A DNA stretch of 58,079 nucleotides, from IMG/VR virus record IMGVR_UViG_3300048823_000073, positions 1-58,079 of that record. The stretch is one strand, 5' to 3'. The DNA is from a virus (lineage: Duplodnaviria; Caudoviricetes). Positions 786 to 57,571 of this stretch are shown piece by piece (position 1 is the stretch's first letter; each line of letters opens with the position of its first letter). The notes beneath the pieces were generated by a model, which did not search any database, was not told the DNA's origin, and saw only the letters and a program-made list of their open reading frames with translations. The translations under genes and the position numbers were made by a program.

Positions 786-1196
786 ATGACAGAGCAAAAA
801 GCATTCACTGCCCGCCAAGCGGCTGAGTATCTCCGCGTAAGCGTGCATACTATAGGCGCTTGGAAGCGCAAGGGCATAATCACGCCCGATATGTATAACG
901 CCCTCACGGGCAAACATGGCTATTCCCGCGCCGCTCTCGACGGCGCCCATGATCGAAGGGGCGGAAGCGATATGTGGGTGCCTGTCGTTGACGGGAAACC
1001 AAAGTTGCTCGGTGATATGTTACCTCGCACGGTAACAGCCCCGCCCCGCGCACCGACACCGCCCGCCAAGTTTGAGAGCGGCGGCAATGTGTTCGACACC
1101 CAAGAAGAGCTGGATGAATATGATCGGCAGTGTGAAGCGGAACACGAGGCGCAATTGGCATGGGATGCCGCCCAAGATTTGGAGGGTCTGGAATGA
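786..1196 (+). CDS. MerR/excisionase-like helix-turn-helix DNA-binding protein
   Basis: N-terminal FTARQAAEYLRVSVHTIGAWKRKGII HTH pattern; acidic C-terminus. Confidence 0.75.
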   Translation: MTEQKAFTARQAAEYLRVSVHTIGAWKRKGIITPDMYNALTGKHGYSRAALDGAHDRRGGSDMWVPVVDGKPKLLGDMLPRTVTAPPRAPTPPAKFESGGNVFDTQEELDEYDRQCEAEHEAQLAWDAAQDLEGLE

Positions 1197-1462
1197 GTGA
1201 CCGGGCGTATAAAATAAGTCTCGCCAAAGCCGCACTACAAAATGCGGTGCGGCGCATACATGCGAATGCCAACCTACATGCGCGTGCCCTAGTGAGACGT
1301 GCGAATGCCGAGGATGACGGTGAGCTAGAGAAAGCGCTTGCTGCTGTTAGGAGGCTTACAAAACGCCACAGCATGTTGCTGGCGGAATTGAAACGGTTAG
1401 AACGCGCCTATTCCGATACGTTAACGCCAAGGGAGATCAAACAGATTATCAGTGAATTATGA
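1193..1462 (+). CDS. Hypothetical protein
   Basis: ATG overlaps upstream stop (ATGA); GGAGG SD upstream. Confidence 0.6.
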   Translation: MSDRAYKISLAKAALQNAVRRIHANANLHARALVRRANAEDDGELEKALAAVRRLTKRHSMLLAELKRLERAYSDTLTPREIKQIISEL

Positions 1463-1543
1463 CCGCTTTATCACTTGGCAGGTTACCTTGAAAGGTATAT
1501 GAATAATCCCTTGGGCTTCATGCCCGCAACTCAGGAGGACTAA

Positions 1544-2686
1544 ATGGACTATATGGTTGCTACGATGGCACGCAAGAAAAAGGTTGTCGAGGAAGTGCTC
1601 GACGATCAGATCATGGACGTGATTGGCGAAGCAATCGGCGCCGAGCCCGTCGAAGTGCAAGATGAGGACGTGCAAACGGCCGAAGTCACTGTCTATGCGG
1701 ATGGTGAAGTCGAGACGCATGAGCATGACGAGACGCAATCCGATGTTACCGAGGAAGGTAACGACCCGGACTATGGTGCGGCCGCATCGCAAGCTGCCCA
1801 AGCCGAGATCGACGCAAGCTATGCGCAAGAGGCAGAGGCCGAAGAAGTGCCAGCCGAAGTGCCAGCCGAAGAGGACGCCGCGCCAACGACGGGCCATAAC
1901 AATCCAGACGCGCTCAAGGACAAGCTGTTGAAGCGTTGCTCCGGCTATGGCAAAGCGGCGAAGCAAGGTGACGCGGCGCTGCCCTCAATGGCGCTCGATG
2001 TGTTCCAGCAAGCAAGTGAACTTAACATCGGCACGCAAGACGCTGATCCGTTGTACTCGCACTATCTTGCGGGCAGGCAGGGATTGAAAGCGCGCGACGT
2101 TACGTCTCCAACGCAGCAAGTCTCTAAGCTGCGCGGCATTATCCGTGCGGGTTATTACACTGGCTCGGATGGCGTGGACATGTTCAACTATGCCAACGAC
2201 AAGTTCGTTGAAGCCCGCGAAGACCCCGAAATCAAGAAGCAGATGAAGACCACGGCGCATTACGATTGGCTTGTGTCAGTCGCAGTGCAGCAGAACGCTC
2301 GCATCCCGGACAACACTCCGCTTGGGGCCGATGTTCCCGTGCTAACCGAGGACGAGATCGACGCGCTATTGTTCCCGGACAAAGACAAGGAAGAGAAAGG
2401 CCCGGCGGACAAGCTGGCAGCTATCATAAAAAACGCCGAGGCATTGCGCAAAGGTCGCAAGGGCAGTGAAGCCCGCCCCGAAATCCCGCCGGTCAATGAG
2501 CCGGAACTGGACGACGCGATCGAGCAGCTCAAGCAACTCATGTGGAAGCTGGACCCGGATGAAGCGGAGAAGATGGCCGCTGCCGAGAAAGCACGCCAGG
2601 CAAAGCAGATGGTTGCCGAGGGGCTCGTTGCTCAGTTGGGCATCTCTTCGCAAGAGGCGATGCGCCTGATCAACCGAGCGAAGTAA
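1544..2686 (+). CDS. Hypothetical early protein with long acidic N-terminal region
   Basis: 380-aa ORF with AGGAGG SD; Asp/Glu-rich first ~110 aa. Confidence 0.8.
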   Translation: MDYMVATMARKKKVVEEVLDDQIMDVIGEAIGAEPVEVQDEDVQTAEVTVYADGEVETHEHDETQSDVTEEGNDPDYGAAASQAAQAEIDASYAQEAEAEEVPAEVPAEEDAAPTTGHNNPDALKDKLLKRCSGYGKAAKQGDAALPSMALDVFQQASELNIGTQDADPLYSHYLAGRQGLKARDVTSPTQQVSKLRGIIRAGYYTGSDGVDMFNYANDKFVEAREDPEIKKQMKTTAHYDWLVSVAVQQNARIPDNTPLGADVPVLTEDEIDALLFPDKDKEEKGPADKLAAIIKNAEALRKGRKGSEARPEIPPVNEPELDDAIEQLKQLMWKLDPDEAEKMAAAEKARQAKQMVAEGLVAQLGISSQEAMRLINRAK

Positions 2687-2701
2687 CGCGGGCAAAGTGA
2701 T

Positions 2702-2730
2702 TTGACGGGGCTTACCTCCAAAGGTAAAAT
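2702..2730 (+). promoter_or_regulatory. Sigma70-type early promoter with the palindromic motif in its spacer
   Basis: TTGACG(2702-2707)-N17-TAAAAT(2725-2730); TTACCtccaaaGGTAA at 2712-2727. Confidence 0.75.
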
Positions 2731-2776
2731 GGTAAGCCCCTTCGACCTCCAACTCTAACCAAAGAAAGAACCCAAC

Positions 2777-2938
2777 ATGAGAAAGCTTATCATCGCCGGA
2801 GCATTGCTCGTCGCCTCCCTCGCGCCCGCCTTTGCTGGGGTGAATTGCCAGACCTACGGCAACCAAACCTATTGCCAAGATGACTCTGGGCATCAATCGA
2901 CCTGCTCAACCTACGGCAACCAAACCTATTGCAACTAA
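2777..2938 (+). CDS. Small secreted Cys-rich peptide (53 aa), not in the ORF track
   Basis: MRKLIIAGALLVASLAPAFA signal peptide followed by GVNCQTYGNQTYCQDDSGHQSTCSTYGNQTYCN. Confidence 0.8.
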   Translation: MRKLIIAGALLVASLAPAFAGVNCQTYGNQTYCQDDSGHQSTCSTYGNQTYCN

Positions 2939-3120
2939 CCTGCAAAGGTAACCTCCCAAGGTAACAGGGGTTCAATTGCCCCTGCCCCCAACACAGGAGG
3001 AAGTCATGTAGATCGTGGGCGCCTGTGGCCGAAGCCCTTGGCTCGGATGGCGGTGAGATGCTGGCGAACACCTGCTCACTGCCATCACGGCGAAGTGCTA
3101 ACCCTGAAAGGATTATCAAA

Positions 3121-3345
3121 ATGAGGAAACCTGATTTCGGAAGTGTGAAAGAAGCGTGCGTGCCTTGGGAGGACTGGTCACAGAGCGGCGTGCAGGATTG
3201 GGACGGAGGCAATACCGAATGCCCCGTGCCGACGCTCTCTAAGAAAGAGATCATCGTTGTTGCCGGGTGCATGGCTGTTTGCATATGCTTCCTCATTCCG
3301 ATCGTGATTTATGATTGGTGCCATGGCGGAGGGCGGCGGGCGTGA
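3121..3345 (+). CDS. Small membrane protein
   Basis: C-terminal hydrophobic segment IIVVAGCMAVCICFLIPIVIY. Confidence 0.55.
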   Translation: MRKPDFGSVKEACVPWEDWSQSGVQDWDGGNTECPVPTLSKKEIIVVAGCMAVCICFLIPIVIYDWCHGGGRRA

Positions 3346-3366
3346 CCCTAGAGGAGCTTCGCGAAT

Positions 3367-3621
3367 ATGTTCGAGAGCGCGCTGCAAACATTCTTGCTGG
3401 CATACGCCGCCGTCGTCGTGATCAGTTGGGTGTTAATCGAGATATCAGAACCCGACTTAATCGAGATGATTTTAGAAGCCTACGGCCACCTGTGGAGTGA
3501 GATCATGATGAACCTTTATGTATGGTGGTGGCTTTGCGGGCACATCGTCATGCGCATGTGCATACCTGCAATAAAGACCGCCGCACCTATCATTTTGCGC
3601 GCGCCCGATCCCGAACTCTAA
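3367..3621 (+). CDS. Small membrane protein
   Basis: GAGGAG SD; hydrophobic N-terminus; stop codon lies in a palindrome copy. Confidence 0.5.
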   Translation: MFESALQTFLLAYAAVVVISWVLIEISEPDLIEMILEAYGHLWSEIMMNLYVWWWLCGHIVMRMCIPAIKTAAPIILRAPDPEL

Positions 3622-3638
3622 CCTCGAAAGGTAATGTC

Positions 3639-3761
3639 ATGTTATTGGCGCAACTTAGTTTCGATCAGTGGTCGGACGTATTTGGGCCGATACTCTTTTG
3701 CGTTACCGGCGTGGGCGTGTTGGTCTTTGTGTTCTGTCAACAGGCGCCGCGTACTAAGTAA
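3639..3761 (+). CDS. Small membrane peptide (40 aa)
   Basis: MLLAQLSFDQWSDVFGPILFCVTGVGVLVFVFCQQAPRTK, bracketed by palindrome copies. Confidence 0.6.
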   Translation: MLLAQLSFDQWSDVFGPILFCVTGVGVLVFVFCQQAPRTK

Positions 3762-3776
3762 CCTTGGGAGGTAACA

Positions 3777-3944
3777 ATGGACATGATTATCTATTTCATC
3801 GCGGGCTGGCAAGTCGGCACATGGATCGTGAAGATTTGGCATTTCGTGTGGGAGAACCGCGACGGGAACTGTGGGCGTCACCCCGTCCTTAAAGAGTTCA
3901 TGGATCATATCAAACACACAAAACCGCCGGTCACCGGCGAGTAA
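3777..3944 (+). CDS. Small membrane peptide (55 aa), not in the ORF track
   Basis: GGAGG SD inside the palindrome; MDMIIYFIAGWQVGTWIVKIWHFVW... Confidence 0.65.
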   Translation: MDMIIYFIAGWQVGTWIVKIWHFVWENRDGNCGRHPVLKEFMDHIKHTKPPVTGE

Positions 3945-3960
3945 CCTTCAAAGGTAACAA

Positions 3961-4083
3961 ATGGACAAGATCATAATCGTGGGGTTCTTCTCGTCCGCGC
4001 TCTGCACCTTCGGCCTATGGCCGGTCGTGTTCGCAGTGGGGGTGCTGTGGTTCTTCCTTCATTGGCTCCCGGAACACACATGA
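3961..4083 (+). CDS. Small membrane peptide (40 aa), not in the ORF track
   Basis: MDKIIIVGFFSSALCTFGLWPVVFAVGVLWFFLHWLPEHT; stop overlaps the next ATG. Confidence 0.6.
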   Translation: MDKIIIVGFFSSALCTFGLWPVVFAVGVLWFFLHWLPEHT

Positions 4084-4319
4084 GCGCGATCTTATCCCCC
4101 ATGGACGTAGGGAAGGTCACTGAGCGCCCCAGCGGGCACATCGTCCTGCGCTACGCCACTGAGCTTACACCCTCCCATGCGGGCGTCTGGTGCGTCTATG
4201 GCGGGCATCAACTGTGCCTGCCCAAGCGATCTATCAAATACAACCCCGATACCAACGAGTTCTATGCGCCCTATTGGGCCGTCAAGAGCGCGTTGAAAAC
4301 CTATAACCTGCAAAGGTAA
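4080..4319 (+). CDS. Hypothetical protein
   Basis: ATGA coupling with upstream ORF; ends in a palindrome copy. Confidence 0.6.
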   Translation: MSAILSPMDVGKVTERPSGHIVLRYATELTPSHAGVWCVYGGHQLCLPKRSIKYNPDTNEFYAPYWAVKSALKTYNLQR

Positions 4320-4342
4320 CAACTAGACAAAGGAGAACGAAC

Positions 4343-4867
4343 GTGATGAAGGATGCAACAAAGTCTAGTAAGCCGCGCAAGCGCAAGACTGCCGACGGCA
4401 GAGAGATAGTCCACACGGGTAAATCCCCCACGGGCCGCACGTACAATCTTGTACACCCGAAGGAAGCCCCGCCCAAGCAATGCGCGACCCTCGAAATGAA
4501 CAAGAGTGACTTTGATGTGATCGGGGTTGCTCCCGCGATCCCGCACTCCAGCATGGTGAACATGAACGCGCCGCCGCCCCCATGCGTAAAGTTGAACTCG
4601 TGCATAGTGGACCCGCAGCCGAGCGCATTCAGAAAGCCTACTGCGCTCGATCGGCTCGAACAAGAGCTGGCGTCGCTGCCGGAAGACAAGCACGCGGCGC
4701 TTGCCCTGATGTATGGGGGAAACCCCGAGCCCCCGACCCTGCGCGAAGAACTGCGCGAAGCCTATGAGCAAGCGGGCAGGGCAGTGCGCGCCGGTTACTA
4801 CGTGGCCGACGTAGCCTATACCTACACGTCAACGGTGGCAGTGATCAAAGCTCGCCACGCGCACTGA
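4343..4867 (+). CDS. Hypothetical protein
   Basis: AGGAG SD; 174-aa ORF. Confidence 0.6.
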   Translation: MMKDATKSSKPRKRKTADGREIVHTGKSPTGRTYNLVHPKEAPPKQCATLEMNKSDFDVIGVAPAIPHSSMVNMNAPPPPCVKLNSCIVDPQPSAFRKPTALDRLEQELASLPEDKHAALALMYGGNPEPPTLREELREAYEQAGRAVRAGYYVADVAYTYTSTVAVIKARHAH

Positions 4868-4868
4868 C

Positions 4869-5141
4869 ATGGGCCAGTTCGACCTGCTTCTCGAAGTGCC
4901 CGATCTGACCATCCACTACTGCGTTGAGATCACCGCCGAGCTGATCCTCGCTCTGCATGACGGCACATTGAACGCTGACCTTTTTGTACAAAAGATTCCA
5001 CGCGGCTCGATCTATGTCCTTTGTGGTGGTGGGGGAGCCTTCCAAGTGTCTCGGTGGATCGGCGGGAGCTGCGAAGCATGCACCGTCGAAACGATACTGG
5101 AGGCGGTGTGCGTGGTAGATGCGTGGCGCTTACCTTCGTAA
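4869..5141 (+). CDS. Hypothetical protein
   Basis: Tightly packed ORF in the + strand operon. Confidence 0.5.
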   Translation: MGQFDLLLEVPDLTIHYCVEITAELILALHDGTLNADLFVQKIPRGSIYVLCGGGGAFQVSRWIGGSCEACTVETILEAVCVVDAWRLPS

Positions 5142-5155
5142 GTAAGGGAGTGGTT

Positions 5156-5458
5156 ATGGGCATGGGCTTCCAAGAGTTCGCGGAGAAGATCAATCTGATG
5201 TTCACGCCCAAAGTGCCGAGGATAACTCCTGATCACGTTCTCGCGCTGGATACGCATGGGCGTAGGGCGTGGGAGCAACTAGACAATGGGCGTTCCATCC
5301 ACTGCTGCCGGATCGCCTCCCTGGTCGGCGGTTATAGTTTTCTGTCCATCAATGTTTTCGGGGCCAAGCTGGAAAAGTTGGAGTCGTGCATCGCCGCCGA
5401 TGTCTTTGAAGCCTTCTGCGTCATAGAAGAACTACGAGAGAAGTGGTCGTTACCTTAG
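5156..5458 (+). CDS. Hypothetical protein
   Basis: GGAG SD after the palindrome at 5130. Confidence 0.55.
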   Translation: MGMGFQEFAEKINLMFTPKVPRITPDHVLALDTHGRRAWEQLDNGRSIHCCRIASLVGGYSFLSINVFGAKLEKLESCIAADVFEAFCVIEELREKWSLP

Positions 5459-5477
5459 CAAGTAAGGAGAGTAAATC

Positions 5478-5723
5478 ATGAAGCAACTATCATGGGCTGC
5501 CGCGTTGCTTGTTGCGGGCATTTGCGTGGCGCGCGCGGAGCCCACACCCGAACAACGGGCAGGGGACTATTGTGATGCGGCGGCCCGCCCAGACATCGTT
5601 GAGGGCTGTCCGCTCCAGCGCCTAAAGGTCATCTGCAAAGAGCAATGGCTCGTGCGGCATCACATCAAAAAGCATATCGAGTTTCACATGTTACCATGCG
5701 AGGTAAGTGATGTCGGAGAATGA
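5478..5723 (+). CDS. Small secreted protein
   Basis: AGGAG SD; signal peptide MKQLSWAAALLVAGICVARA; 4 Cys in the mature part. Confidence 0.65.
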   Translation: MKQLSWAAALLVAGICVARAEPTPEQRAGDYCDAAARPDIVEGCPLQRLKVICKEQWLVRHHIKKHIEFHMLPCEVSDVGE

Positions 5724-5991
5724 CGACGCGATGGAAGACCTTCTAAAGCCGGTATATGCGGAAATATTAGCTGCCGGGTTCTCCGATGTGGACCTTTTGC
5801 GGCAGCTTGATAAGCAACTCCGGCTGGAGCTTAAAGCGATTACGCGGGCGCAGGCTATGGACGATATGCCTGCTGCCATGCAGCACGCCAAGTTTGTTAT
5901 CGGGATAACCTATTTGCGGGCGTGGGTGCGCGATAAGATCGACGCGAGCTTGCCCAGCGGCATCCCCTTAGATCGGAGGTTGCTCACATAA
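5710..5991 (+). CDS. Hypothetical protein
   Basis: GAGG SD within a palindrome copy. Confidence 0.6.
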   Translation: MSENDDAMEDLLKPVYAEILAAGFSDVDLLRQLDKQLRLELKAITRAQAMDDMPAAMQHAKFVIGITYLRAWVRDKIDASLPSGIPLDRRLLT

Positions 5992-6025
5992 TAGACCTTT
6001 GGGGTTTACCATCGGAGGTAAGGGA

Positions 6026-6274
6026 ATGATTACACCAGATGCGCTGGCGGAGTTCCTAACTTACGCCAGCTTCGAGGACATGCTGGAAGAACAGCTCGAC
6101 CCATACACCAAGCTATATGTGTCCACCACCTTCGAGCGTATGGACTTGATGATTCGCGCCGTCCGTTACCAATCCGTGTTCCATTATGTCTTCGTGCAGC
6201 CGGAGTTCTTGTTGGTCTGGCTCGCCCTTGAAGGCATGCGCGAGAGACTGTTACCTGCCACGGTAACAGCCTAG
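6026..6274 (+). CDS. Hypothetical protein
   Basis: GGAGG SD within the palindrome at 6006. Confidence 0.55.
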   Translation: MITPDALAEFLTYASFEDMLEEQLDPYTKLYVSTTFERMDLMIRAVRYQSVFHYVFVQPEFLLVWLALEGMRERLLPATVTA

Positions 6275-6310
6275 CAACTAAGCCCTTGTTACCTCTAGTG
6301 GTATTATTCG

Positions 6311-6340
6311 TTGACAATCCGATATTAATCTGGTAGTAAT
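6311..6340 (+). promoter_or_regulatory. Putative sigma70 promoter
   Basis: TTGACA(6311-6316)-N17-TAGTAA in an AT-rich intergenic region. Confidence 0.5.
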
Positions 6341-6410
6341 TCATATGTTCAACATCGGAGAGTGAGCATATGGCATCTTCTAGTCCCCTTAAGCATAAAG
6401 AAACTATAAG

Positions 6411-6601
6411 TAAGTTCGGCAACTTCGGGCGTGTAGTAGGCGAAACTGATCGCTCAAGCCACTGCCCGAGTATGATGCAATGTTGCGTGTAGCGAGAGCT
6501 GCGACAGCCAGTCAACGGCACTTGCCGAAGAAAGTGATCCTCGATATACTATCTGAACCCTAATTGATACTGTAGAGGGGGGCCTTGTGGCGCTCCTCTA
6601 C
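6411..6601 (+). ncRNA. Candidate structured RNA
   Basis: TTCGGCAA(6415-6422)/TTGCCGAA(6522-6529) closes two arms, one with a GAGA tetraloop; further hairpin at 6572-6601. Confidence 0.4.
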
Positions 6602-6630
6602 TAATCTGGTGATTACCTTGGAGAGTAACT

Positions 6631-7029
6631 ATGCTTGAAGGAATAAAGTTCGATGAAGGCAAGCCGCCGCTTCATCTTCTTCCGCCGGATGCGCTGTACG
6701 CCATCACTGAAATCTTAGACCACGGCCAGGAGATATACGGTGCCCGCAATTGGGAGAAGGGCATGGCGTGGAGCCGGGTCTATCGTGCGGCGATAGGGCA
6801 TATGTTCCAGTGGTTCATGTTCGCCGGGCCGGACAAGGACACCGGCAAGTCGCACCTATGGCATGCTGGGGCATGCATATTGTTTCTGATTACTTACGAA
6901 CTACGCGGCATCGGGACCGATGATCGCCCAACTTTATACAGGAGGACTAAAGTTGAACAAGCACCTATCACAAAAACCGAGCCCACGCTCGAAGAGTCAG
7001 CAGCCGAAATATTGGCGGTTACTTCGTGA
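6631..7029 (+). CDS. dATP/dGTP diphosphohydrolase domain protein (DUF5664-like)
   Basis: GIKFDEGKPPLHLLP...HG..IYGARNWEKGM...AAIGH...DKDTGKSHLWHA pattern. Confidence 0.85.
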   Translation: MLEGIKFDEGKPPLHLLPPDALYAITEILDHGQEIYGARNWEKGMAWSRVYRAAIGHMFQWFMFAGPDKDTGKSHLWHAGACILFLITYELRGIGTDDRPTLYRRTKVEQAPITKTEPTLEESAAEILAVTS

Positions 7030-7224
7030 GGTAACGTTTGACCAACTCCCCAAGCCAATCGTCGCGGCGCTTGACCTTGAGCAAAATCTGGTGCTCGTTC
7101 GCGCGGATTGGTGGGAGCAGCAACACCCATGGGTTAAACGCATGGTGTGGGCAATGAGCGTGCCCGTCTTCTACGAAGATGATTTCGTGGAAGCGATTTG
7201 TCTCTAACCTAGAAAGGTACGAAC

Positions 7225-8328
7225 ATGAAGTTGAAGGACATCGAACAGAAACTTACGACATGGTATGCCATGAGTGCGGAGCCGAACGGTCCGGCGGTCT
7301 ATCTCGTTGGCCCGCCCGGTCGCGGCAAGACGACAGTGCTGGAGACGCTGCCCAAGCGCCTTGAAGCGGCGAACCCCGGCAAGAACTTCGGGCTCGTTGT
7401 GCTCAATGGGGCCTGTGTAAGCCTCACAACCGTCTCCGGCTATCTGTGGCCGACTGAGGTAGAGGGCGTCGCCTATTCACGCTTCACAAAGCCGGACTGG
7501 TATATTACCAGGGAAGGTAAGTCGCTCGACGAGTACGATGGCGGGGTCATCCTCGTGGATGAAGCCGACAAAGTTGCGCCGGACGAGAAAAAGATTTTGG
7601 GTGAAGCGGCGCTGTCCAAGCGGCTCGCGTCGCATTGGTTGCCGCCGGGTTGGGTGGTGTGGTTCGCGGGCAACTCGGCCAAGGACCGTTCCGGCTCGAC
7701 CAAAGAGTTTGATCACCTGATCAATCGGCGGATGGAGATCAGCGTCTCGGACGATCTGGAGAGCCTGACGAACTGGATGGAAAAGCAAGGGTGCCTGGCG
7801 GAGTCGATTACCTTCGCAAGTGAGAACCCCAATATCGTGTTCCCGGACAAACCGCAGGAAGTCCAAGGACCGTTTTGCACGCCAAGATCGCTTGCGTCGA
7901 TGGATCGTTATCTCCGGTTCATTATGCAGGATAAGCAGCTCAAGGACGTGCCGACCGGCCCCGACGTGCTGGAAGAATGTTCCGGCATCGTGGGGGAAGG
8001 AGCCGTCACTCAGTTCATGACGGTGGTGCGGTTGGGGCAGGAGTTGCCTGCCTATGAGAAGATCGTAGCGGAAGCTGGCACTATCCCTGTGCCTAAGCGT
8101 CCCGATGCGCAAATGCTGGCTGTCTACAAGCTCGCAGCGCGCGTCTCGGAGAAGGATATTGCGCCGGCGCTGACCTACATCAAGCGCCTGCCCAAAGAGT
8201 TCTCTGTGACGTTCCTGCGGACCGTGACGGCGCGCGTCCCTAAGATCATCAGCACTCCGCCAGTCGTGCAATGGTGCAAAGAGAACTCGGCGCTGGTCGT
8301 TATGCTGGCGAAACTCAAAGCGCAGTAG
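7225..8328 (+). CDS. AAA+ ATPase (MoxR/AAA_5-like)
   Basis: Walker A GPPGRGKT, Walker B ILVDEAD, AGN sensor I, LINR arginine finger, TPRS motif. Confidence 0.85.
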   Translation: MKLKDIEQKLTTWYAMSAEPNGPAVYLVGPPGRGKTTVLETLPKRLEAANPGKNFGLVVLNGACVSLTTVSGYLWPTEVEGVAYSRFTKPDWYITREGKSLDEYDGGVILVDEADKVAPDEKKILGEAALSKRLASHWLPPGWVVWFAGNSAKDRSGSTKEFDHLINRRMEISVSDDLESLTNWMEKQGCLAESITFASENPNIVFPDKPQEVQGPFCTPRSLASMDRYLRFIMQDKQLKDVPTGPDVLEECSGIVGEGAVTQFMTVVRLGQELPAYEKIVAEAGTIPVPKRPDAQMLAVYKLAARVSEKDIAPALTYIKRLPKEFSVTFLRTVTARVPKIISTPPVVQWCKENSALVVMLAKLKAQ

Positions 8329-8348
8329 TTACTTGCAGAGGTAACATC

Positions 8349-8678
8349 ATGGCGATCATTCCAGCAGATCAGTTCCAGAGGATCGTGAGGGACGTGGAGC
8401 GGGCGCGGGGTGATCGCCTATTCGTCCATAAAATCTTTGGAGAGGAGATTATCGTGCGAACAACATATACAGTCTCACTCAAGATCGACATCGACCCCGA
8501 AGACAAAGCCACGCATGAAGCGGCGGTCGCGGCGATCAAGATAGCGGCGCAAGTCGTCTTCGCGCAAGTGTCGCTCTTGCAGCTCAGGCGCGCTCCACAA
8601 ATCGCATTGACGACGGATAACTCTTTCATGGGCACGCAGGCTATTGAGGCGTTTGATCCAGATGCACCAACAGCCTGA
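8349..8678 (+). CDS. Hypothetical protein
   Basis: GAGG SD inside the palindrome at 8329. Confidence 0.6.
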   Translation: MAIIPADQFQRIVRDVERARGDRLFVHKIFGEEIIVRTTYTVSLKIDIDPEDKATHEAAVAAIKIAAQVVFAQVSLLQLRRAPQIALTTDNSFMGTQAIEAFDPDAPTA

Positions 8679-8967
8679 GACTCTTCGATCTCGCCTTCGT
8701 AAGAGCCCGATGCAGCGATATGCGTTGTTTGCTATCGCGACGGGCATCACCGAGTTCATGGGGGTTGAAGTAAGGCGAAGGTGGTACCCCAAAGTGTACG
8801 CGGATGGGAGGGACATATCCCATCTGGTCAATGTCCTGCGGCGCAAGGGCCTGGTGCGATACAAAGACATCCTCACAGAGTCGCCCCGACTAGAGCTGAC
8901 CAACGCGGGCAAGAAGGAATTATTTGGCGAGGACTTACCATCCACGGTAACAACAAAGGACACTTGA
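8662..8967 (+). CDS. Hypothetical protein, possibly winged-helix
   Basis: ISHLVNVLRRKGLVRY...LELTNAGKKEL resembles a wHTH recognition helix and wing. Confidence 0.45.
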   Translation: MHQQPETLRSRLRKSPMQRYALFAIATGITEFMGVEVRRRWYPKVYADGRDISHLVNVLRRKGLVRYKDILTESPRLELTNAGKKELFGEDLPSTVTTKDT

Positions 8968-8969
8968 AC

Positions 8970-10382: not shown

Positions 10383-10462
10383 ATGAGTACTCGTCCAGTG
10401 AAACGATACAAACCCACGAATTACCTTTCAAAGTAACCCAATTAATCAAGGGAGCGACGAGC

Positions 10463-47667: not shown

Positions 47668-47689
47668 AACTTACCTACGAAAGTAACTG

Positions 47690-48384: not shown

Positions 48385-48418
48385 TTTACTCTCCCATACT
48401 TACCTATGGAGGTAAGTC

Positions 48419-49259: not shown

Positions 49260-49331
49260 GATGTTTCTCCATCTAAGAAGTTAGAAGTTACCTTTACAAG
49301 TAACTAGCATACTCGCTCTACTTACGCAAGC

Positions 49332-49562: not shown

Positions 49563-51671
49563 CTAGTGTCCCCCAGCGATGCGCGTTCTCGGTCCCGTGT
49601 CCTGGGTGACATTGGACCCTGGTTGATTCCCCTGAGCTTGCTGGGCTTGGTCCCCGCCTTGCGAATGCCCAACTTGACCCTGCTGCTGGGCCGTCTGCTG
49701 CGCCTGCTTCTGCTGGGCTTCCATCTGGTCGTCTGTGGGCACGATCTGCTCGCCAGGGAGCCCGAGCGTATCCGCCACCGGCCTTAGTATGGCTGCGCGA
49801 CCTTTCGGCCCGATAATGCCCATGTCGATCGGGTTCGCCGTAGCCGCCAAGAACTCCAATTGACGGGAGCGCTCGGTTTCCTTCTGGATCGCGACACCGA
49901 CGCCCGAAACTTGAATTTCCTCTTCGCCCGTCAAAAGCTGCGAGTCATCAGTCAGCATCACCATATCGTAGAGCCCGTGCAGCGCCGGGTCGATGACTTC
50001 TCGGTCAATGTTGGCTGCGACGGTCTGTAAAATCTTACTAGCATTGCTCATAAGCATCGAGAGCCCCGAGGCAGTGCGCCCCACGGCCCCCGCTTGGCCG
50101 CCGGTCATGTATCTGGGCACGGCGCTGTGCTCGTCGGCCATGTTCACAAACTGCGAATAAACCGTGAGAAGCTCTTGCGCATTGCTGTTGGGCTGAAAGA
50201 AGTTGATCGCGGGCTGCTGGTTGTTCCCCATCGGGTCGTTGCGCGTGTGCCAGCGCTTCCACGGGTATAGGTCTTCGCCATCTTCGTCGTCAGACAATCT
50301 ATCGTCGTTGACTTCAACCTGCGGCCCCGAGGCCATCGCCATGTTGTTGACCAATGCCCGGAGCGCCGAATTGGAGGCGTCTTGGATGTCCGCAAGGATA
50401 TCGGGGAGCCCGTTTCCAACTGGCGTTCCGGGCACCTTCTCAAAGCTCGTCACATAATATTGGTGACGCTTGCGTGGGGAAGGCGCAAGTTGAGCTTTGA
50501 TAACGTAGGAGCCAATCAACCACGCATTGATGAAATAGTCCCGCACAGGGTCGTCTATTACCTCTGGAGGTAACCCGTAGTCCAGTAGCATCATGCCCTG
50601 GACAGTACCTTGGAACTCCAGACAGTTGATCAATCCCGATCGGTTCATTCGCGGGTCTTCCCGGCTCTCATAGACCGCTCTGGAAGAGTCCGTTATATCC
50701 CAATCATCACTTATCCCGCCGGTCCCATAGCTCGAAAGCACTTCACGAACCGCGTCGTGATTGTACCCGGGCAGGTCGAGAAGATCATTCAATTCCGACC
50801 GTGTAAGCCGGATACGCTCGATGCAGTTCGCGTTCTCGATGTCGGATACGCCTGGCGTCCAGTAAAGATCAAAAGGCGAAACTCTTTGCCAACAGAGCTT
50901 GGGAGTATCTGTCGAGACCGCTTTGGGGGGTGCCCCGGGCTTGTCGCTTTTCCAAACAACCTCGGGGAGTATCCGAACAGTCGGCCCCTTGATGGCGGCA
51001 TACGGGAAAAGTGGCAAATCAACAATGAACTCGGCTAGGGCTTTATAGAACCCGCCCTCGGTCAAAATCTCATCGAGCTTCTCTTCGGCAATGCGAGCCT
51101 GCTCGGCCGCTTTCTTCTTCGCAGCCTGGCGCGCGGCCTCCGTGAGCATCGTGAACCTATCACGAATTGCGCCAGGATCGGCTGGCTGCCCCGCCTGCAT
51201 CGCACCCGTTATTTCCGAGTCAATAAGCTGTTGTATGGCTGTATGAATTGCCTGCGGCAATTTGGGGTCTTGATCCGGCTTAAGCCCCCATGGGCGATCT
51301 GTCCCCAGATAAACATCACGTAAGAGCGAACTGGCGCCACGCGACTTGATCGCCGTGATCCGCGCGAAAATCTCCGAGCCGCCAAACTTGCGTATCTCAC
51401 GAAGCTGATCCGGATCGTATTGTCCGTTGAATGATCGCATCGCACGCAGCAAGCGCTCCGCCCAACCGGACAGCGGATTGTCCCGATGGAGGCGCATAAG
51501 CTCGTATTGCGATCTGATGTACCCCGCGAGCCGGTCGATATCTGTGGGGGTGTAAGTCTGTGCGCGCGCGGAAGCTGCCGCTTGGGCGGCCGCTTTATCC
51601 ATGTCCGCATTGGACATAGCTCTTAATATGCCACCACTTGGGATTGCTTGCGGCATTGAATTGGTGTACAC
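49563..51671 (-). CDS. Portal protein (start may be the ATG at 51656)
   Basis: ~700 aa; RVSPFDLYW.P, G.GLPD.L.D.Q...N...R...NN, GRTASGLSMLM; Gln-rich tail. Confidence 0.9.
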   Translation of the reverse strand: MYTNSMPQAIPSGGILRAMSNADMDKAAAQAAASARAQTYTPTDIDRLAGYIRSQYELMRLHRDNPLSGWAERLLRAMRSFNGQYDPDQLREIRKFGGSEIFARITAIKSRGASSLLRDVYLGTDRPWGLKPDQDPKLPQAIHTAIQQLIDSEITGAMQAGQPADPGAIRDRFTMLTEAARQAAKKKAAEQARIAEEKLDEILTEGGFYKALAEFIVDLPLFPYAAIKGPTVRILPEVVWKSDKPGAPPKAVSTDTPKLCWQRVSPFDLYWTPGVSDIENANCIERIRLTRSELNDLLDLPGYNHDAVREVLSSYGTGGISDDWDITDSSRAVYESREDPRMNRSGLINCLEFQGTVQGMMLLDYGLPPEVIDDPVRDYFINAWLIGSYVIKAQLAPSPRKRHQYYVTSFEKVPGTPVGNGLPDILADIQDASNSALRALVNNMAMASGPQVEVNDDRLSDDEDGEDLYPWKRWHTRNDPMGNNQQPAINFFQPNSNAQELLTVYSQFVNMADEHSAVPRYMTGGQAGAVGRTASGLSMLMSNASKILQTVAANIDREVIDPALHGLYDMVMLTDDSQLLTGEEEIQVSGVGVAIQKETERSRQLEFLAATANPIDMGIIGPKGRAAILRPVADTLGLPGEQIVPTDDQMEAQQKQAQQTAQQQGQVGHSQGGDQAQQAQGNQPGSNVTQDTGPRTRIAGGH

Positions 51672-51695
51672 CCGTTACCAGCGAAGGTAACTAGC

Positions 51696-51733: not shown

Positions 51734-52198
51734 ATGGCGACCCCCCAAGATACTGCTACTCCCCAAGAAAAGCTGCGCATGTTCATCACGGACCTTGCGC
51801 AAGACATCGTTCCCTTAGAGGAACTCTTGGTCAAGTACAGTTACTCGATCGGCTTTTTCACCCGTGTAAATGCGCTTCCGGCTTTCCAAAAACGTCTCTC
51901 CGAAGAGCGGACGGCGTGGCTGGCTGTAGACAACAGAGCGAAGCGCGTCAAATTCCAGGCTGGCGCAGCGGTAGAAAACCTTCTCCCGGAATTAGGCGGC
52001 ATGTTCCTCGACAGAACGCTACCCGCAAGGGATCGTCTCGAAGCAATCAAGCATCTGTCCAAGCTTGCGGAGTTTGGCGGGGATAAAGCGGCAACGGGCG
52101 GCGAGAGTGTCAGCATCATAATCAATCTGGGAGAGGACAAGAAGCTGGCGTTCTCCCATGCCTTGCCTGAAAAGGTAATAGAGCATTCCGATGCCTAA
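51734..52198 (+). CDS. terS: Putative terminase small subunit
   Basis: Helical 154-aa protein overlapping the TerL start; C-terminal VSIIINLG strand. Confidence 0.65.
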   Translation: MATPQDTATPQEKLRMFITDLAQDIVPLEELLVKYSYSIGFFTRVNALPAFQKRLSEERTAWLAVDNRAKRVKFQAGAAVENLLPELGGMFLDRTLPARDRLEAIKHLSKLAEFGGDKAATGGESVSIIINLGEDKKLAFSHALPEKVIEHSDA

Positions 52199-53994: not shown

Positions 53995-54465
53995 CTATGC
54001 AACCTCCACACGCGCAGCCACGGGGGCATTGGGCTGATCTTGGTATTTCCCGCGATAAGGGAGTATCGTAGGATGATCTAGCCACTCGAACTTGACCTGG
54101 CACAATGGGGCTCCAGCCTCAAATTCTATGCGGTAGCCCCCGTGGTTCACTAGCTCGACCGTCAACCACCCTTCCCATCCCGGATCGAGATGCGTGTTAA
54201 AGACGCTCATGAACGCGCGTGCGTGCGTAGATTTGTCCATCACAGACCCGCAAATATTATCGGGCAGGACGAACCGCTCCATTGTGCTCGCAAGCGCCGC
54301 CTCACCCGAAAGCAAGACCAAATCCTGCGCTATCCGGCAATCATACGAACATGCCGAAAGCCCGAATGACCGGCCCCCAACGACACCGCGCTCCACGAAG
54401 GGGGATATGAGGGGCCAATCCCCTTGCGCCAAACGCCGGATGGTTTGTGCTGAAAGCACACTCAT
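53995..54465 (-). CDS. dcd: dCTP deaminase (trimeric dUTPase superfamily)
   Basis: SFGLS..SYD, DKST.AR, DPGWEGWLTVELVN, YRGKYQDQ. Confidence 0.85.
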   Translation of the reverse strand: MSVLSAQTIRRLAQGDWPLISPFVERGVVGGRSFGLSACSYDCRIAQDLVLLSGEAALASTMERFVLPDNICGSVMDKSTHARAFMSVFNTHLDPGWEGWLTVELVNHGGYRIEFEAGAPLCQVKFEWLDHPTILPYRGKYQDQPNAPVAARVEVA

Positions 54466-54588
54466 GTCACCCCCCCAAAAAGTTACTTCCAAAGGTACTT
54501 TAATTCCAAAGATCGTAAGCGAAAATAAAGGTGCTGGCCCGAACCCAGACGAGCCACTCCACTACGAGGAGGGTGCAGATCCGGAACT

Positions 54589-54876: not shown

Positions 54877-55016
54877 GGGTGCTCACCCCACCAGTTCAAA
54901 TATGTCTTGGCGTAAGTCTTCGCCAACCAAATGATCGCCCAGCCAATGAACACGGCCATGACCGCAGACAGAGCCAACTCACCCCAAAAATTCTTCATAT
55001 TACCTCCAAAGGTAAC

Positions 55017-55280
55017 TTAGAGCGCTGCCAACTGTGTCGTCAGCGTCGCAATGTTATTGCTGATGATCACAATCGCGGCGTTGAGCATCGTCGCAGAGTC
55101 CGCCACCGAAAATGGCACCTGCTGTCCGATGTTCGTGGGCGTCGCGCCCGTGAGCAGACTGATCCCAACAATCTGCGCATTGTTGGCAACTGCCGATTGG
55201 AGCTGCGCTGCAAGCGTTTGGAGCGCTTGTATCTGCGCCGCGAGCTGCCCGGCCAGTATCCCTTGCGCGACCGTCGCCAT
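55017..55280 (-). CDS. Hypothetical protein
   Basis: AGGAG SD; ends at the palindrome at 55000. Confidence 0.6.
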   Translation of the reverse strand: MATVAQGILAGQLAAQIQALQTLAAQLQSAVANNAQIVGISLLTGATPTNIGQQVPFSVADSATMLNAAIVIISNNIATLTTQLAAL

Positions 55281-55585
55281 TAGCTGATCTCCTCGGGCAT
55301 GGCCTGGTTCTTACCGTCCGAGGTAACTGGCTCGTTCTTCCAGCTACGGGGCACGATGTTGATCTTGGTTGTCTGCCACGCACCAACAAACCTGAGATCG
55401 GGCACCATGCCCAGCGATATCCACAGCCGCCCGCTCCACAGCAACTTGATCCGTTCGCGCACGCTCAACTTAAGAAGCGTGTTGATCCCCACGAGCTGCC
55501 TGTCCTTCGGAGCATCCTCGGGGAACAGCGCCGATACCGGCTCTGCGTAACCAATCTTGATCTCGATATCTCCAATGTTCGCCAC
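55280..55585 (-). CDS. Hypothetical protein
   Basis: Coupled ORF. Confidence 0.55.
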   Translation of the reverse strand: MANIGDIEIKIGYAEPVSALFPEDAPKDRQLVGINTLLKLSVRERIKLLWSGRLWISLGMVPDLRFVGAWQTTKINIVPRSWKNEPVTSDGKNQAMPEEIS

Positions 55586-55860
55586 TACGCGCTCTCTTTC
55601 TCTAACTCGACTACTTTAAGTTTTCCGACTCTCATTGCTCCAACGCGACCCGGCTCAACGAACCAGCCCGCACCCTGCAAATTCAGGTCTTCCACACTCA
55701 CAAGCGGGTGTGACGTTCCACCCCCGCGCATGATCTTCACAAATCCATTCCCCCACCCCGCATACAGCTCCTCCCCCCGCCGGAACAATTTGCACTGACG
55801 ATAAACGCCCTTGCTACGGAGGATGCACTGCGCGTCTTCAATAATGTGGAAATAATCCAT
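55585..55860 (-). CDS. Hypothetical protein
   Basis: Coupled ORF; ATG at 55860. Confidence 0.55.
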   Translation of the reverse strand: MDYFHIIEDAQCILRSKGVYRQCKLFRRGEELYAGWGNGFVKIMRGGGTSHPLVSVEDLNLQGAGWFVEPGRVGAMRVGKLKVVELEKESA

Positions 55861-55903
55861 CAAACTCTCATGTTGTCCTCTGATGTTACTCTCTGAGGTT
55901 ACC

Positions 55904-56233
55904 TCAAGAGGTAATCTCTTCATCGGCAGGAATAACATCTCCCCCTACAGGGTCGTAGTTATCAAAGGGAATGTTATCGTGCCGATTGCGCCGATTGTGC
56001 AGCAACCACTCAAGCACTTGATCCTCAAAATAATAGATCAAGCGTCCGACCTTCACATAATCTGGACCTGTCCTCTTGACCCGCCAGTCGTTAAGCGTGA
56101 ACGGCGATATCTCCAATAGCTTAGTGACTTCCAAGGGAGTGAGCAGGCGCATGCGTTCACGCAGATGACGCCCCAGCTCGTCGCCGTCCACGAGCGTTTG
56201 CACGCTCTCTTTCCCCTTTATTACGTTCGCCAT
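55904..56233 (-). CDS. Excisionase/AlpA-like HTH protein
   Basis: LLTPLEVTKLLEISPFTLNDWRVKRTGPDYVKVGRLIYY; next to the integrase remnant. Confidence 0.85.
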   Translation of the reverse strand: MANVIKGKESVQTLVDGDELGRHLRERMRLLTPLEVTKLLEISPFTLNDWRVKRTGPDYVKVGRLIYYFEDQVLEWLLHNRRNRHDNIPFDNYDPVGGDVIPADEEITS

Positions 56234-56301
56234 CTTATACTCCCAATCTATACACACCATACACTATAAAGTTACCTTGTCAAGTAATAAAATGGTAATA
56301 A

Positions 56302-56762
56302 TCAGATAATAATTTGATCATAGTAATCTGCAAGTTGCTGGAGGGCAGCGCGATGCTCGGGGATGTAGCGAGTTCGGTTGTAGACACTCTCGATCGGATC
56401 GTGCAGGTGCGTGTGACCGAGCACGTTTTGATGCGGCGGGCCTCCGCATAGATCGTCATGAGGGTGGCGAGGGTTAGGGCGGGCAGCGCTGGACTATGGG
56501 AGCCCTCTCGAAAGGCGTTTCGGGCTTCCTGGGCCTTCTGACGGGCTTGGGCGAGACTTGTTTGGGGGTAGGTGCCTAGGGGGATGCGCTTGCGGGTGTG
56601 ACTGTGGGTTGTCAGCAGGCTCCAGATCGGATCGTGGTGCGAAGCGCGGAGCACTAAGCCGGGGCACGCCCCGTCCCGGAGTTCTAAGCGGGCGCCTTGT
56701 GGGTTCTTGGCGAGGGCACGCGCGATCGAGGCGGTGATGAGGGGGGTTATGATCTTGGGCAT
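56302..56762 (-). pseudogene. int: Tyrosine integrase with a large internal deletion
   Basis: Arm-binding domain (LRDGACPGLVLR...RIPLGTYPQTSLAQARQKA) joined out of frame to the integrase C-terminus LGH...VYNRTRYIPEHRAALQQLADYYD (56421-56302). Confidence 0.85.
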
Positions 56763-57225
56763 TTGTGGGGGGTCTTTTGGGGATTTCAGGGGGTTAAAAG
56801 TTCTCAGATAGTGGAAGAGCACGTTTGGGCAGTTTTAAGGGGTGTTTGGTTGGATTTCAAGGGGTTAGAGGTTTTTAGGTTGTGGGGCTTAGAGGGGGTT
56901 TTATGCGGGCCGGTCAGATATCCGAAGTGGGTTTTAGAGGGGGTGAGGTACTCGATGGGGTTATCCGGGGGACTTACGATCGTTTGAGTTGTCCGGGTTT
57001 TAGAGGGGGGTGAGGTGCTTGGTGCTATTTGGGTATAATCTGGTGCTATTGCGAATTTGTAGGTTCTATATGTGCGACCCCTAAAAGGGCCACGCCCCCC
57101 ACCGCCACCCTTGGTCCATATGGGGCGCCGGTCTTACCTCGAAAGGTAACAGCATATCCCCTCCCCGGGGCTCTATTGTGGAAGGGAAACCTCCCCCGGC
57201 CCAAAGGTTCCAGGGTCACGCATCA

Positions 57226-57542
57226 GGGCTCCATCTTCGCCCAAGAACCGCAGTCATGCCAGACTGACACGAGGCCAGCGGTCCGATTGTCTTACAATCA
57301 GCCGGAAGCGACGCCTCGCTAAAGTGGAAACCCCGCGATGAACGGGACAGAACCCAAGTCTTACCTTGGGGCTGGCATGGTGGCAAAATAGCAGACGGGA
57401 AGCAAAACCCCTGCGAATATGCCGCGTTACTCTGCAAGAACCCCCCTAACTAGGGTTGCTCGCCATGTTTACAGGGCGGCAAGCGGTGCAAATCCGCGCG
57501 GCGGGGTTCTTGCACGGTAACACTGGAAAACCCATAAGGGTT
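57226..57542 (+). ncRNA. Candidate large structured RNA or leader
   Basis: About ten consecutive stems; 12-bp perfect stem 57433-57444/57503-57514; T-loop GCGG-TGCAAAT-CCGC; potential pseudoknot. Confidence 0.55.
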
Positions 57543-57571
57543 AACCCTGTTACCTTTCAAGGTAAACGACA

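Follow-up and report, generated by a model that had tools for sequence, protein, structure and literature searches.

The stoperators of Cluster A mycobacteriophages (L5, Bxb1) are asymmetric, transcription-oriented sites for the monomeric repressor of a temperate phage. The record of phage epsilon15 (AY150271) annotates ATTACC-N5-GGTAAT as repressor (Rep/gp38) sites. In the Cluster O mycobacteriophages (the Corndog group), 17-bp dyad repeats of the form TGTTCGG-N3-CCGAACA occur genome-wide in more than 30 copies, with invariant arms and a variable centre, about a third of them in genes, and they are absent from the hosts; the authors infer that a dimeric protein binds them, without assigning a function (PMC4351075). 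Here we describe an array of the palindrome TTACY-N6-RGTAA in a Caudoviricetes genome, the complete IMG/VR virus record IMGVR_UViG_3300048823_000073 (58,079 bp; this whole stretch of DNA is called the window below). The palindromes are very probably the sites of a phage-encoded symmetric DNA-binding protein, and our best guess at their function, to which we assign a probability of about 0.4, is a genome-wide network of operators and transcriptional roadblocks.

Copy number and geometry of the palindrome

Searching the window with the pattern TTACYNNNNNNRGTAA returned 55 exact copies, whereas 100 dinucleotide shuffles averaged 0.09 and never gave more than 1, and the pattern written backwards, which served as control, gave 0 copies. 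An earlier sequence-only reading was thus right in claiming a genome-wide palindrome above chance level. Another 23 copies with one mismatch bring the array to 78 sites, with an extended consensus of G-TTACC-T-y-c-g-r-A-GGTAA-C. The geometry is strict in the window: all 55 copies have the N6 spacer, none was found with N0-5 or N7-9, one each was found with N10 and N14, and isolated half-sites are not enriched. The 66 starts listed in the sequence-only reading comprise 51 exact and 14 one-mismatch copies (1483, 2936, 2949, 3619, 3759, 3942, 4304, 11391, 17089, 17448, 28703, 35356, 37029 and 54483), but the remaining one, at 7205, has two mismatches (TAACCTAGAAAGGTAC), and four exact copies (1746, 12779, 16423 and 18317) had been overlooked. 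Its statement that the spacer is always 6 nt is correct for the window but not for several relatives, which mix N5 and N6.

Although 89% of the genome is coding (77 called genes), the 78 sites are divided between genes (34 wholly inside), intergenic sequence (33) and gene edges (11). As had been noted before, copies occur in both transcription halves and inside polA, primase and portal, and five of them lie 847-1216 bp apart in the gene for the giant virion protein, the last of these with one mismatch (Table 1). The proposed comparison with codon-preserving shuffles (300) gave far fewer in-gene copies than the window: exact copies averaged 0.79 and never exceeded 5, against 24 observed; for one-mismatch copies 10 were observed against a mean of 6.3, and part of these are therefore due to chance. 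Chance and codon usage as origins of the array are ruled out by the two kinds of shuffle. The copies are modestly more evenly spaced than random sites, with a coefficient of variation of 0.76 compared with 0.98 (P=0.005) and a largest gap of 2458 compared with 3630 (P=0.03) for the 78 sites; when only the 55 exact sites are taken, the largest gap is ordinary (P=0.31). The inner 8 nt are purine-rich on the + strand whatever the gene strand (30 versus 10 among the 55 exact copies, P=0.002), a bias that is not repeated in relatives. One DNA run showed 23 population differences over positions 1-20,000, two of which fall in site spacers (13937 and 17458); none falls in site arms, where only about 0.5 would be expected, so that this says nothing on constraint.

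Among the small early genes, the left arm takes the form TAACC, its TAA being the stop codon of the upstream gene (2936, 3619, 3759, 3942 and 17089), and the AGGT of the right arm lies 2-4 nt ahead of the next ATG at early junctions, where its sequence suggests that it can serve as ribosome-binding site. On the virion strand, copies start 1-5 nt past stop codons. The right arm is often found 2-6 nt ahead of a start codon as a possible Shine-Dalgarno sequence, and relatives accept both N5 and N6, as a loop might; both observations would suit a hairpin in RNA or single-stranded DNA that hides a ribosome-binding site, is cut by a nuclease or acts as a priming signal. Such a hairpin is highly improbable, since compensatory change is absent at every symmetric position, both in 216 sites of class A, to which the window belongs, and in 73 class-B sites. 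At positions 5/12, class A has 154 Watson-Crick pairs compared with 154.3 under independence, and the other three inner pairs gave 108 versus 98.6, 78 versus 83.7 and 61 versus 67.7. The combinations C/A and T/G at positions 5/12 are alike on the sense strand (a count by eye gave 7 and 5 for the + strand block), invariance is found in the outermost bases, TTAC/GTAA, and not in the Shine-Dalgarno core, and the in-gene location of 34 copies also speaks against a hairpin. On the same covariation data we rejected stem-loop elements of the terminator, repetitive extragenic palindromic (REP) and ssi kinds; GC-rich terminator hairpins of the ordinary kind stand beside the palindrome after the capsid gene. 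As base-pair covariation is missing and the halves vary independently, we conclude that two equivalent subunits read the palindrome on duplex DNA, and it is practically established that each of them reads one half-site, TTACC(T). The site anatomy of a dimeric protein, as proposed in the earlier reading, agrees with the strict geometry and with half-sites that degrade independently of each other.

Relatives, hosts and candidate binding proteins

IMG/VR was searched by a pattern scan and a capsid-profile scan, and 14 further records (G-numbered) were taken whole or largely. At least 504 relatives encode a related capsid protein, and the nearest cultured ones are the Rhizobium phages RHph_TM27A, TM27B, TM29 and TM3_14A (portal identity 58%). 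TM27A contains 32 exact copies compared with one for the control pattern, and the motif is the same although a match was found for only 21 of the 77 window proteins. The palindrome is a family trait, occurring in TM27A, in Bradyrhizobium-associated contigs and in many IMG/VR relatives; all of the 14 records except G010 have a high-copy palindrome of the form TTAC-xx-N3/4-xx-GTAA. The type TTACC-N6 is shared by the window, TM27A, G001, G002 and G013 (55, 28 and 45 copies in the last three), and the other types are TTACYC-N3-GRGTAA (G006 and G007), TTACTC-N4-GAGTAA (G008), xxACTC-N3-GAGTxx (G009), GTTACAG-N3-CTGTAAC (G011), TACCT-N3-AGGTA (G012), TTACCG-N2/3-CGGTAA (G014) and TTACTG-N3-CAGTAA (G015). 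Several genomes accept two spacings (TM27A, 14 + 32 copies; G001, 9 + 55; G006, 42 + 15). Among 102 shorter loci, 41 have a scoring palindrome, mostly of the same types, and ten of these are coding repeats. The CCGG-N5-CCGG and GGTCC-N4-GGACC "palindromes" of clade 3 were likewise rejected as collagen-like coding repeats with a 9-nt period; they were located in L192, L194, L200, L208, L211, L212 and L214 and at 56.7-57.4 kb of G010, and probably belong to tail fibres.

Identities of capsid, portal, TerL and PolA divide the family into three clades. Clade 1, although deep, keeps a stable motif throughout, but in clades 2 and 3 even close relatives have different motifs, and sister clades with mutually 86-94% identical capsid proteins carry different variants. 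Every genome has a variant of its own at the orthologous junction behind the capsid gene, and the same holds for the window, TM27A, G004, G005, G006 and G007 in the region of copy 51675. The conservation in relatives called for by the sequence-only reading was found at the level of the system and hardly at that of single sites: the array is kept, but only two of 20 aligned in-gene copies (12125 and 43574) are positionally kept in TM27A. The lineage variants, the variants at orthologous junctions and the turnover of copies together point to concerted evolution of the site set with its reader and to continuing selection for copies. There is hardly any doubt that selection maintains the array genome-wide, or that each phage lineage and its recognised sequence, of the form TTAC-xx-N3/4-xx-GTAA, evolve together.

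The small early genes (1-7 kb) are not shared with relatives and have the motif between them, and the motif differs between clades; both would be expected if the palindromes were recombination linkers, whose 16-bp junction sequence aids the exchange of cassettes between co-infecting relatives. The promoter-stem-loop cassettes of T4-type phages are a comparable arrangement. We regard linkers as very unlikely, as 44% of the copies, and nearly all in clade 3, lie in genes, and homologous exchange needs neither strict dyad symmetry nor spacing. In Cluster O, few or none of the repeats were seen at rearrangement points (PMC4351075).

A capsid-profile scan of 185,579 species genomes gave 26 loci, including phage-sized contigs in two Bradyrhizobium isolates and loci inside long contigs of Xanthobacteraceae and Pseudolabrys metagenome-assembled genomes (MAGs). 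An integrase adjoins three of these loci, two of them within long bacterial contigs. In Bradyrhizobium Rp7b, TTAC-N8-GTAA occurs 19 times, with 11 copies on the 60.6-kb phage contig and 8 in the remaining ~8.6 Mb (control pattern, 55); in Bradyrhizobium sp. 139 there are 18 copies on phage contigs and 8 elsewhere (control, 49). A host regulon is unlikely, as the pattern is concentrated on phage contigs and below control elsewhere; the earlier proposal to look for the motif in candidate host chromosomes thus returned counts below control in both genomes. It is accordingly most improbable that the phage exploits a transcription factor or nucleoid protein of the host as binder of the motif: the presence of the same motif in phages whose core proteins are only ~45% identical would fit such a factor, but the 8 copies outside the phage contigs of each genome, against 49-55 for the control, and the different variants of close relatives do not. 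The two Bradyrhizobium chromosomes, the turnover of in-gene copies and the lineage-specific versions make a phage-encoded binder likely.

The first candidate binder is the early 380-residue protein encoded at 1544-2686, whose N-terminal region is acidic and which has a conserved all-helical domain; its homologue in TM27A is the annotated CDS at 18372-19100. When 17 proteomes were clustered, few non-structural families proved universal, and among early genes outside replication only this family reached 13 of 14 genomes; it is absent from G010, the genome with the fewest TTAC-type sites (11), and present in both of two further complete records. Public data hold 857 sequence clusters of the family, none of them annotated, and Pfam, PDB and fold searches gave no match outside the family itself. 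AlphaFold2 (AF2) predicts an all-helical structure with a mean predicted local distance difference test score (pLDDT) of 93.7, and a two-fold symmetric homodimer is predicted with a score of 0.49, compared with 0.05 for the best control; this mark was attained by 20 of 30 known homodimers and one of 23 monomers, and the homodimer runs had at least 96% of contacts in common and pLDDT of at least 83. A Pfam scan of 41 members did not confirm a lead (score 0.81) to the phiC31 repressor c family. An HNH-like protein (22556-22804), considered as a site-specific nickase, was rejected, being absent from four complete clade-3 genomes that keep the palindromes. Three other proteins considered, encoded at 51734-52198 (upstream of TerL), 17932-19074 and 17454-17876, gave no match in family and PDB searches.

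The second candidate is the primase-helicase, which is found in 12 of the 14 genomes, the two without it being incomplete records. Its C-terminal 290 residues match Cch of the staphylococcal cassette chromosome mec (SCCmec; 5dgk_B, E 8.2e-4) and the initiator Rep-helicase of the Staphylococcus aureus pathogenicity island (SaPI) SaPIbov1 (8tch_A, E 0.04), and the last ~65 residues form a helix-helix-hairpin unit that weakly matches heat shock factor winged-helix DNA-binding domains (E about 1). The protein diverges where the motif changes, with a mean identity of 0.30 in clade 3 compared with 0.51 for PolA. Between genomes with the same half-site, the winged helix has an identity of 0.37 and the remaining sequence one of 0.41 (ratio 0.90, n=11), and the corresponding values between genomes with different half-sites are 0.22 and 0.30 (ratio 0.71, n=55); such identity ratios are confounded by phylogeny and are hints only.

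If the palindromes were loading or recognition sites of this primase-helicase, its C-terminal winged helix would read the half-site, two hexamers would be placed head to head, and many initiation or re-priming points would be provided on phage DNA only. Such a role in replication, which we rank second among the possible functions, is possible but doubtful. It would agree with the presence of the protein in every complete genome compared, with the similarity of its C-terminus to self-loading helicases and initiators, with its greater divergence where the half-site differs, and with copies that are indifferent to genes, fairly even, symmetric and absent from the host. However, the iteron-like region at the genome ends, with units of 85, 38 and 66 bp, is a candidate origin of a more conventional kind, the window protein has a putative recognition helix unlike that of other class-A genomes despite the identical motif, the half-site comparison carries the phylogenetic confounding just mentioned, and the overlap of copies with promoters is unexplained. 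We know of no precedent for some fifty initiation sites in 58 kb.

A protein docking about every kb could also distinguish phage from host DNA, as a shield against a nuclease or translocating restriction enzyme or as an organiser of packaging or ejection; the coating of the genome by one protein that the sequence-only reading proposed is an idea of this kind. The density of ~1 copy per kb, with in-gene copies included, the absence of the motif from host chromosomes and a specificity that differs by lineage would fit such self-marking, and the giant virion protein has in its C-terminal half a match to the PHROG family "DarB-like antirestriction" (phrog_10089, E 1.4e-32). Self-marking, which we rank third, nevertheless seems unlikely, as copy number varies about five-fold among complete relatives (11 to 64), which is odd for an essential shield, and a nuclease-immunity pair was not recognised. 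More speculatively, and with considerable doubt, both ideas may be combined in a widespread "self-address" system of soil phages, in which docking palindromes at ~1 per kb would be read by the new-fold homodimer of the 1544-2686 family or by the winged helix of the primase-helicase and would license multi-site replication or mark self, with switches of half-site and spacing defining mutually exclusive compatibility groups.

Operators and roadblocks as the preferred function

We rank an operator and roadblock network first because of the overlaps with promoters, the temperate ancestry of the family and the epsilon15 precedent with the same half-site. A phage-encoded protein of two-fold symmetry would bind the palindromes as a genome-wide controller of transcription: copies overlapping sigma-70-type promoters would act as operators, and those located at gene junctions or within long genes would be roadblocks that dampen spurious transcription or read-through. 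Temperate ancestors would have handed down this circuit, whose logic would be like that of the epsilon15 Rep operator set and the mycobacteriophage stoperators. Three of the nine best promoter-like sites (sigma-70, at least 10 of 12 matches) overlap copies (2712, 17448 and 56272), where about 0.5 would be expected by our estimate, and more overlaps were judged by eye. The gene content suggests that the family is of temperate ancestry, given the integrase remnant and excisionase-like helix-turn-helix protein of the window and the intact integrases beside relatives. The surviving part of the integrase (56280-56822) is the arm-binding domain of a P4-type integrase and adjoins the excisionase-like gene, and the integrase catalytic domain PF00589 was found in none of 10 IMG/VR genomes. 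Relatives on a Bradyrhizobium contig and in the Xanthobacteraceae and Pseudolabrys MAG contigs keep the integrase, and the Pseudolabrys contig has two tandem phage copies 61,893 bp apart.

Several observations weigh against an operator and roadblock network. The promoter scan as a whole is at chance (36 sites compared with ~33 in shuffles), and most copies are away from recognisable promoters. In clade 3, the in-gene share of copies rises to 84-89% in G011 and G014 and 69% in G015, and no copy in these three genomes lies within 15 nt of a start codon, so that a promoter or junction role cannot be universal. Density is higher in the integrase-less genomes of clades 1 and 2 (33-64 copies), and the integrase-bearing relatives have the fewest sites (18 and 11), the opposite of what a pure lysogeny repressor would give. 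What the preferred reading chiefly fails to explain is the clade-3 pattern, together with the high density in genomes that lack an integrase. The acceptance of N5 and N6 in several relatives is awkward for a rigid dimer. As to the binder, fold searches found no known DNA-binding fold in the 1544-2686 protein, its conserved domain is acidic in the window (isoelectric point, pI, 5.5; net charge -4; family median pI 9.3), and the family is only 17-32% identical between genomes with identical motif. No recognisable repressor is shared, as HTH_3 (PF01381) occurs in four of the 14 genomes, the window not being one of those with it, and HTH_17 in four of 14. A homologue of epsilon15 gp38 was absent by phmmer from 17 family proteomes and two bacterial-contig relatives; the best match (E 0.005) is a 107-residue protein of G007, and there is none in the window.

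If the sites are operators, a repressor network can outlast the loss of integration in a lineage and even become denser; if they are more than operators, as in replication licensing or self-marking, they would represent a new principle of phage genome organisation. Annotators should note that a constraint at the DNA level partly shapes the stop codons and ribosome-binding sites of these genomes.

Gene content of the window and comparison with described systems

The early and replication genes form a block on the + strand and the virion genes one on the - strand (Table 1). The window sequence is present in peat and permafrost metagenomes; searches for a close neighbour, by megablast of 25 kb against phages and with the primase against IMG/VR, were empty. 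Two peat metatranscriptome runs (X14 and X19) contain short contigs of the early region, e.g. 734-1097, 1136-1504 and 5574-5903 (window positions 1-20000 examined), and the phage is thus probably active in the field, with DNA carry-over as a possible alternative source. Iteron-like direct repeats are located at the genome ends (57910-58079, 1-196 and 642-772), with units of 85 bp (two copies, which compose the 127-bp terminal overlap), 38 bp (2.7 copies) and 66 bp (two copies). They are a plausible origin or packaging region, and the direct terminal repeat (DTR) call of the record may partly reflect this terminal repeat. Nucleotide-pool genes encode a dATP/dGTP diphosphohydrolase N-domain (PF18909) and a dCTP deaminase-like protein (6631-7029, +, and 53995-54492, -), and no PurZ-like gene was found among the window proteins scanned. 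The product of 17932-19074 (+) has four invariant cysteines, a Pro/Ala-rich linker and an acidic C-terminal tip across 11 orthologues and looks like a zinc-containing single-strand DNA-binding protein (SSB); Pfam and PDB searches with it gave no match.

Table 1. Palindrome copies and selected genes of the 58,079-bp window.
Feature	Position	Strand	Details
Whole array	1020-57565		55 exact and 23 one-mismatch copies
Exact copy	1020-1035		inside early gene 786-1196
One-mismatch copy (GGTAT)	1483-1498		after TTGGCA, 45 nt upstream of the 1544-2686 family gene; promoter judged by eye
Exact copy	1746-1761		inside gene 1544-2686
Exact copy	2712-2727		occupies spacer and -10 of promoter-like TTGACG-N17-TAAAAT (2702-2730)
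Two overlapping TAACC-type copies	2936-2964		starts 2936 and 2949; first TAA is stop of gene 2777-2938
Junction copy	3619-3634		TAA is stop of gene 3367-3621; AGGT 4 nt before next ATG
Junction copy	3759-3774		left arm holds stop codon; next start 2 nt on
Junction copy	3942-3957		left arm holds stop codon; next start 3 nt on
One-mismatch copy	4304-4319		final TAA is stop of gene 4080-4319
Exact copy	5130-5145		intergenic, 10 nt ahead of start 5156
Exact copy	5450-5465		spans stop of gene 5156-5458
Exact copy	5691-5706		3' end of gene 5478-5723, 3 nt ahead of start 5710
Exact copy	6006-6021		intergenic, 4 nt ahead of start 6026
Exact copy	6251-6266		3' end of gene 6026-6274
Exact copy	6613-6628		intergenic, 2 nt ahead of start 6631
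Exact copy	7019-7034		spans stop of gene 6631-7029
Degenerate junction copy, two mismatches	7205-7220		between TAA stop and MoxR start 7225
Exact copy	7505-7520		inside MoxR-like ATPase gene
Exact copy	8329-8344		directly after MoxR stop, 4 nt ahead of start 8349
Exact copy	8935-8950		inside gene 8710-8967
Exact copy	10421-10436		intergenic
Exact copy	11021-11036		inside gene 10463-11221
Exact copy	12125-12140		inside polA; homologous place kept in TM27A (32585)
Exact copy	12779-12794		inside polA
Exact copy	13928-13943		inside gene 13522-14016; population variant 13937 in spacer
Exact copy	14275-14290		inside PD-(D/E)XK exonuclease gene
Exact copy	15632-15647		inside SNF2 helicase gene
Exact copy	16423-16438		inside SNF2 helicase gene
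Junction copy	17089-17104		TAA is SNF2 stop; next start 2 nt on
Exact copy	17405-17420		intergenic, upstream of promoter-like site 17440
One-mismatch copy	17448-17463		within promoter-like TTGACA-N16-AATAAT (17440-17467), 2 nt ahead of start codon
Exact copy	17892-17907		intergenic
Exact copy	18317-18332		inside SSB-like gene 17932-19074
Exact copy	19077-19092		2 nt past stop of gene 17932-19074
Exact copy	19879-19894		inside primase-helicase gene
Exact copy	20725-20740		inside primase-helicase gene
Exact copy	22083-22098		directly after primase stop codon
Exact copy	22335-22350		edge of gene 22341-22559
Exact copy	23321-23336		between gene 23176-23331 and giant gene
Exact copy	24646-24661		inside giant virion gene
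Exact copy	25862-25877		inside giant virion gene
Exact copy	26954-26969		inside giant virion gene
Exact copy	27856-27871		inside giant virion gene
One-mismatch copy	28703-28718		inside giant virion gene
Exact copy	30735-30750		inside virion gene for 1010 residues
Exact junction copy	32822-32837		minus-strand operon, 1 nt past stop, 3 nt ahead of start
Exact junction copy	34068-34083		3 nt past stop
Exact junction copy	38209-38224		1 nt past stop
Exact junction copy	38675-38690		5 nt past stop
Exact copy	41133-41148		intergenic, just downstream of minus-strand promoter-like site (by eye)
Exact copy	42296-42311		3 nt past capsid-gene stop; relatives carry own variant at same junction
Exact copy	43574-43589		inside gene 43336-44379; homologous place kept in TM27A (7083)
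Two exact copies	45266-45342		starts 45266 and 45327, on either side of minus-strand promoter-like site (by eye)
Exact junction copy	47671-47686		3 nt past stop, 3 nt ahead of start
Exact junction copy	48400-48415		
Exact copy	49288-49303		intergenic
Exact copy	50558-50573		inside portal gene
Exact copy	51675-51690		divergent region between portal gene and gene upstream of TerL
Exact junction copy	55000-55015		
Exact copy	55311-55326		inside gene 55280-55585
One-mismatch copy overlapping exact copy	55886-55914		starts 55886 and 55899; at HTH_17 gene stop
Exact copy	56272-56287		overlaps promoter-like TTGACA-N16-TATGGT (56283-56256, minus strand)
Exact copy	57134-57149		intergenic
Exact copy	57550-57565		6 nt ahead of start 57572
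Candidate binder 1, 380 residues	1544-2686	+	conserved domain, residues 125-380
MoxR-like ATPase	7225-8328	+	early/replication block
DUF2201/VWA protein		+	early/replication block
Family A DNA polymerase (polA)	11218-13086	+	
PD-(D/E)XK exonuclease		+	early/replication block
SNF2 helicase		+	early/replication block
Primase-helicase (candidate binder 2)	19164-22082	+	primase-polymerase domain and DUF927 helicase
C-terminal winged-helix-like domain of primase-helicase	21846-22043	+	residues 895-960; AF2 pLDDT ~88-94
Giant virion protein, 2168 residues	23349-29855	-	DarB-like region
SU10-type portal, then TerL		-	virion block
HTH_17, excisionase-like (Xis-like) small protein	55904-56260	-	homologues only in G012 and G013
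Integrase remnant	56280-56822	-	Arm-DNA-bind_3 domain only; PF00589 absent from window

The C-terminus of the primase-helicase appears to belong to the same fold class as SaPI Rep and SCCmec Cch, with a terminal winged helix that in those proteins gives sequence-specific origin binding. These elements differ from the window in having a single origin with clustered iterons instead of ~55 dispersed palindromes. The matS and SlmA sites named as precedents in the sequence-only reading compare poorly, because the host lacks the motif here. We did not find the motif described in the rhizobiophage literature (main texts), and the literature on Bcep22 inverted repeats held nothing relevant.

That the motif has no recognised precedent, as had been stated, cannot be upheld, given the annotated repressor sites of epsilon15-type phages and the comparable dyad array of Cluster O. 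Phages of the epsilon15/phiV10 type share the identical half-site TTACC/GGTAA and use the palindrome genome-wide (11 exact N5 copies in the 39.7 kb of epsilon15), and the N5 geometry of epsilon15 is also found in G006, G007 and G012. The window differs in having only N6 copies (none at N5), five times more copies and nearly half of them in genes; with 34 of 78 copies inside genes, the sites are not confined to the operon starts of a temperate phage. Neither gp38 nor any other epsilon15 protein has a detectable relationship to the family, and the window lacks an intact integrase.

Stoperators resemble the array in that dozens of sites for one phage protein lie mostly in short intergenic gaps, act beyond promoters and diverge in specificity between lineages, but the site of the window is a palindrome without consistent polarity, and such asymmetry as its inner bases have is neither tied to the gene strand nor repeated in relatives.

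The window agrees with the Cluster O arrangement in having more than 30 dyad copies, many of them intergenic and others in genes, in their absence from the hosts tested and in the lack of a clear lysogeny module, both phage groups being not obviously temperate (PMC4351075). The sequence is unrelated, the Cluster O hosts are actinobacteria and the virion type is another; moreover, five near-identical genomes were compared there, whereas the present family is deep, with diverging specificity and spacing and a higher density of ~1 copy per kb (PMC4351075). The Cluster O puzzle has been open since its description, and the present family is a much better system for solving it, with at least 504 relatives, a cultured isolate (RHph_TM27A on Rhizobium phaseoli) and relatives in Bradyrhizobium isolate assemblies, and because half-site and spacing switch naturally between close relatives, the binder should be findable by covariation and swap experiments.

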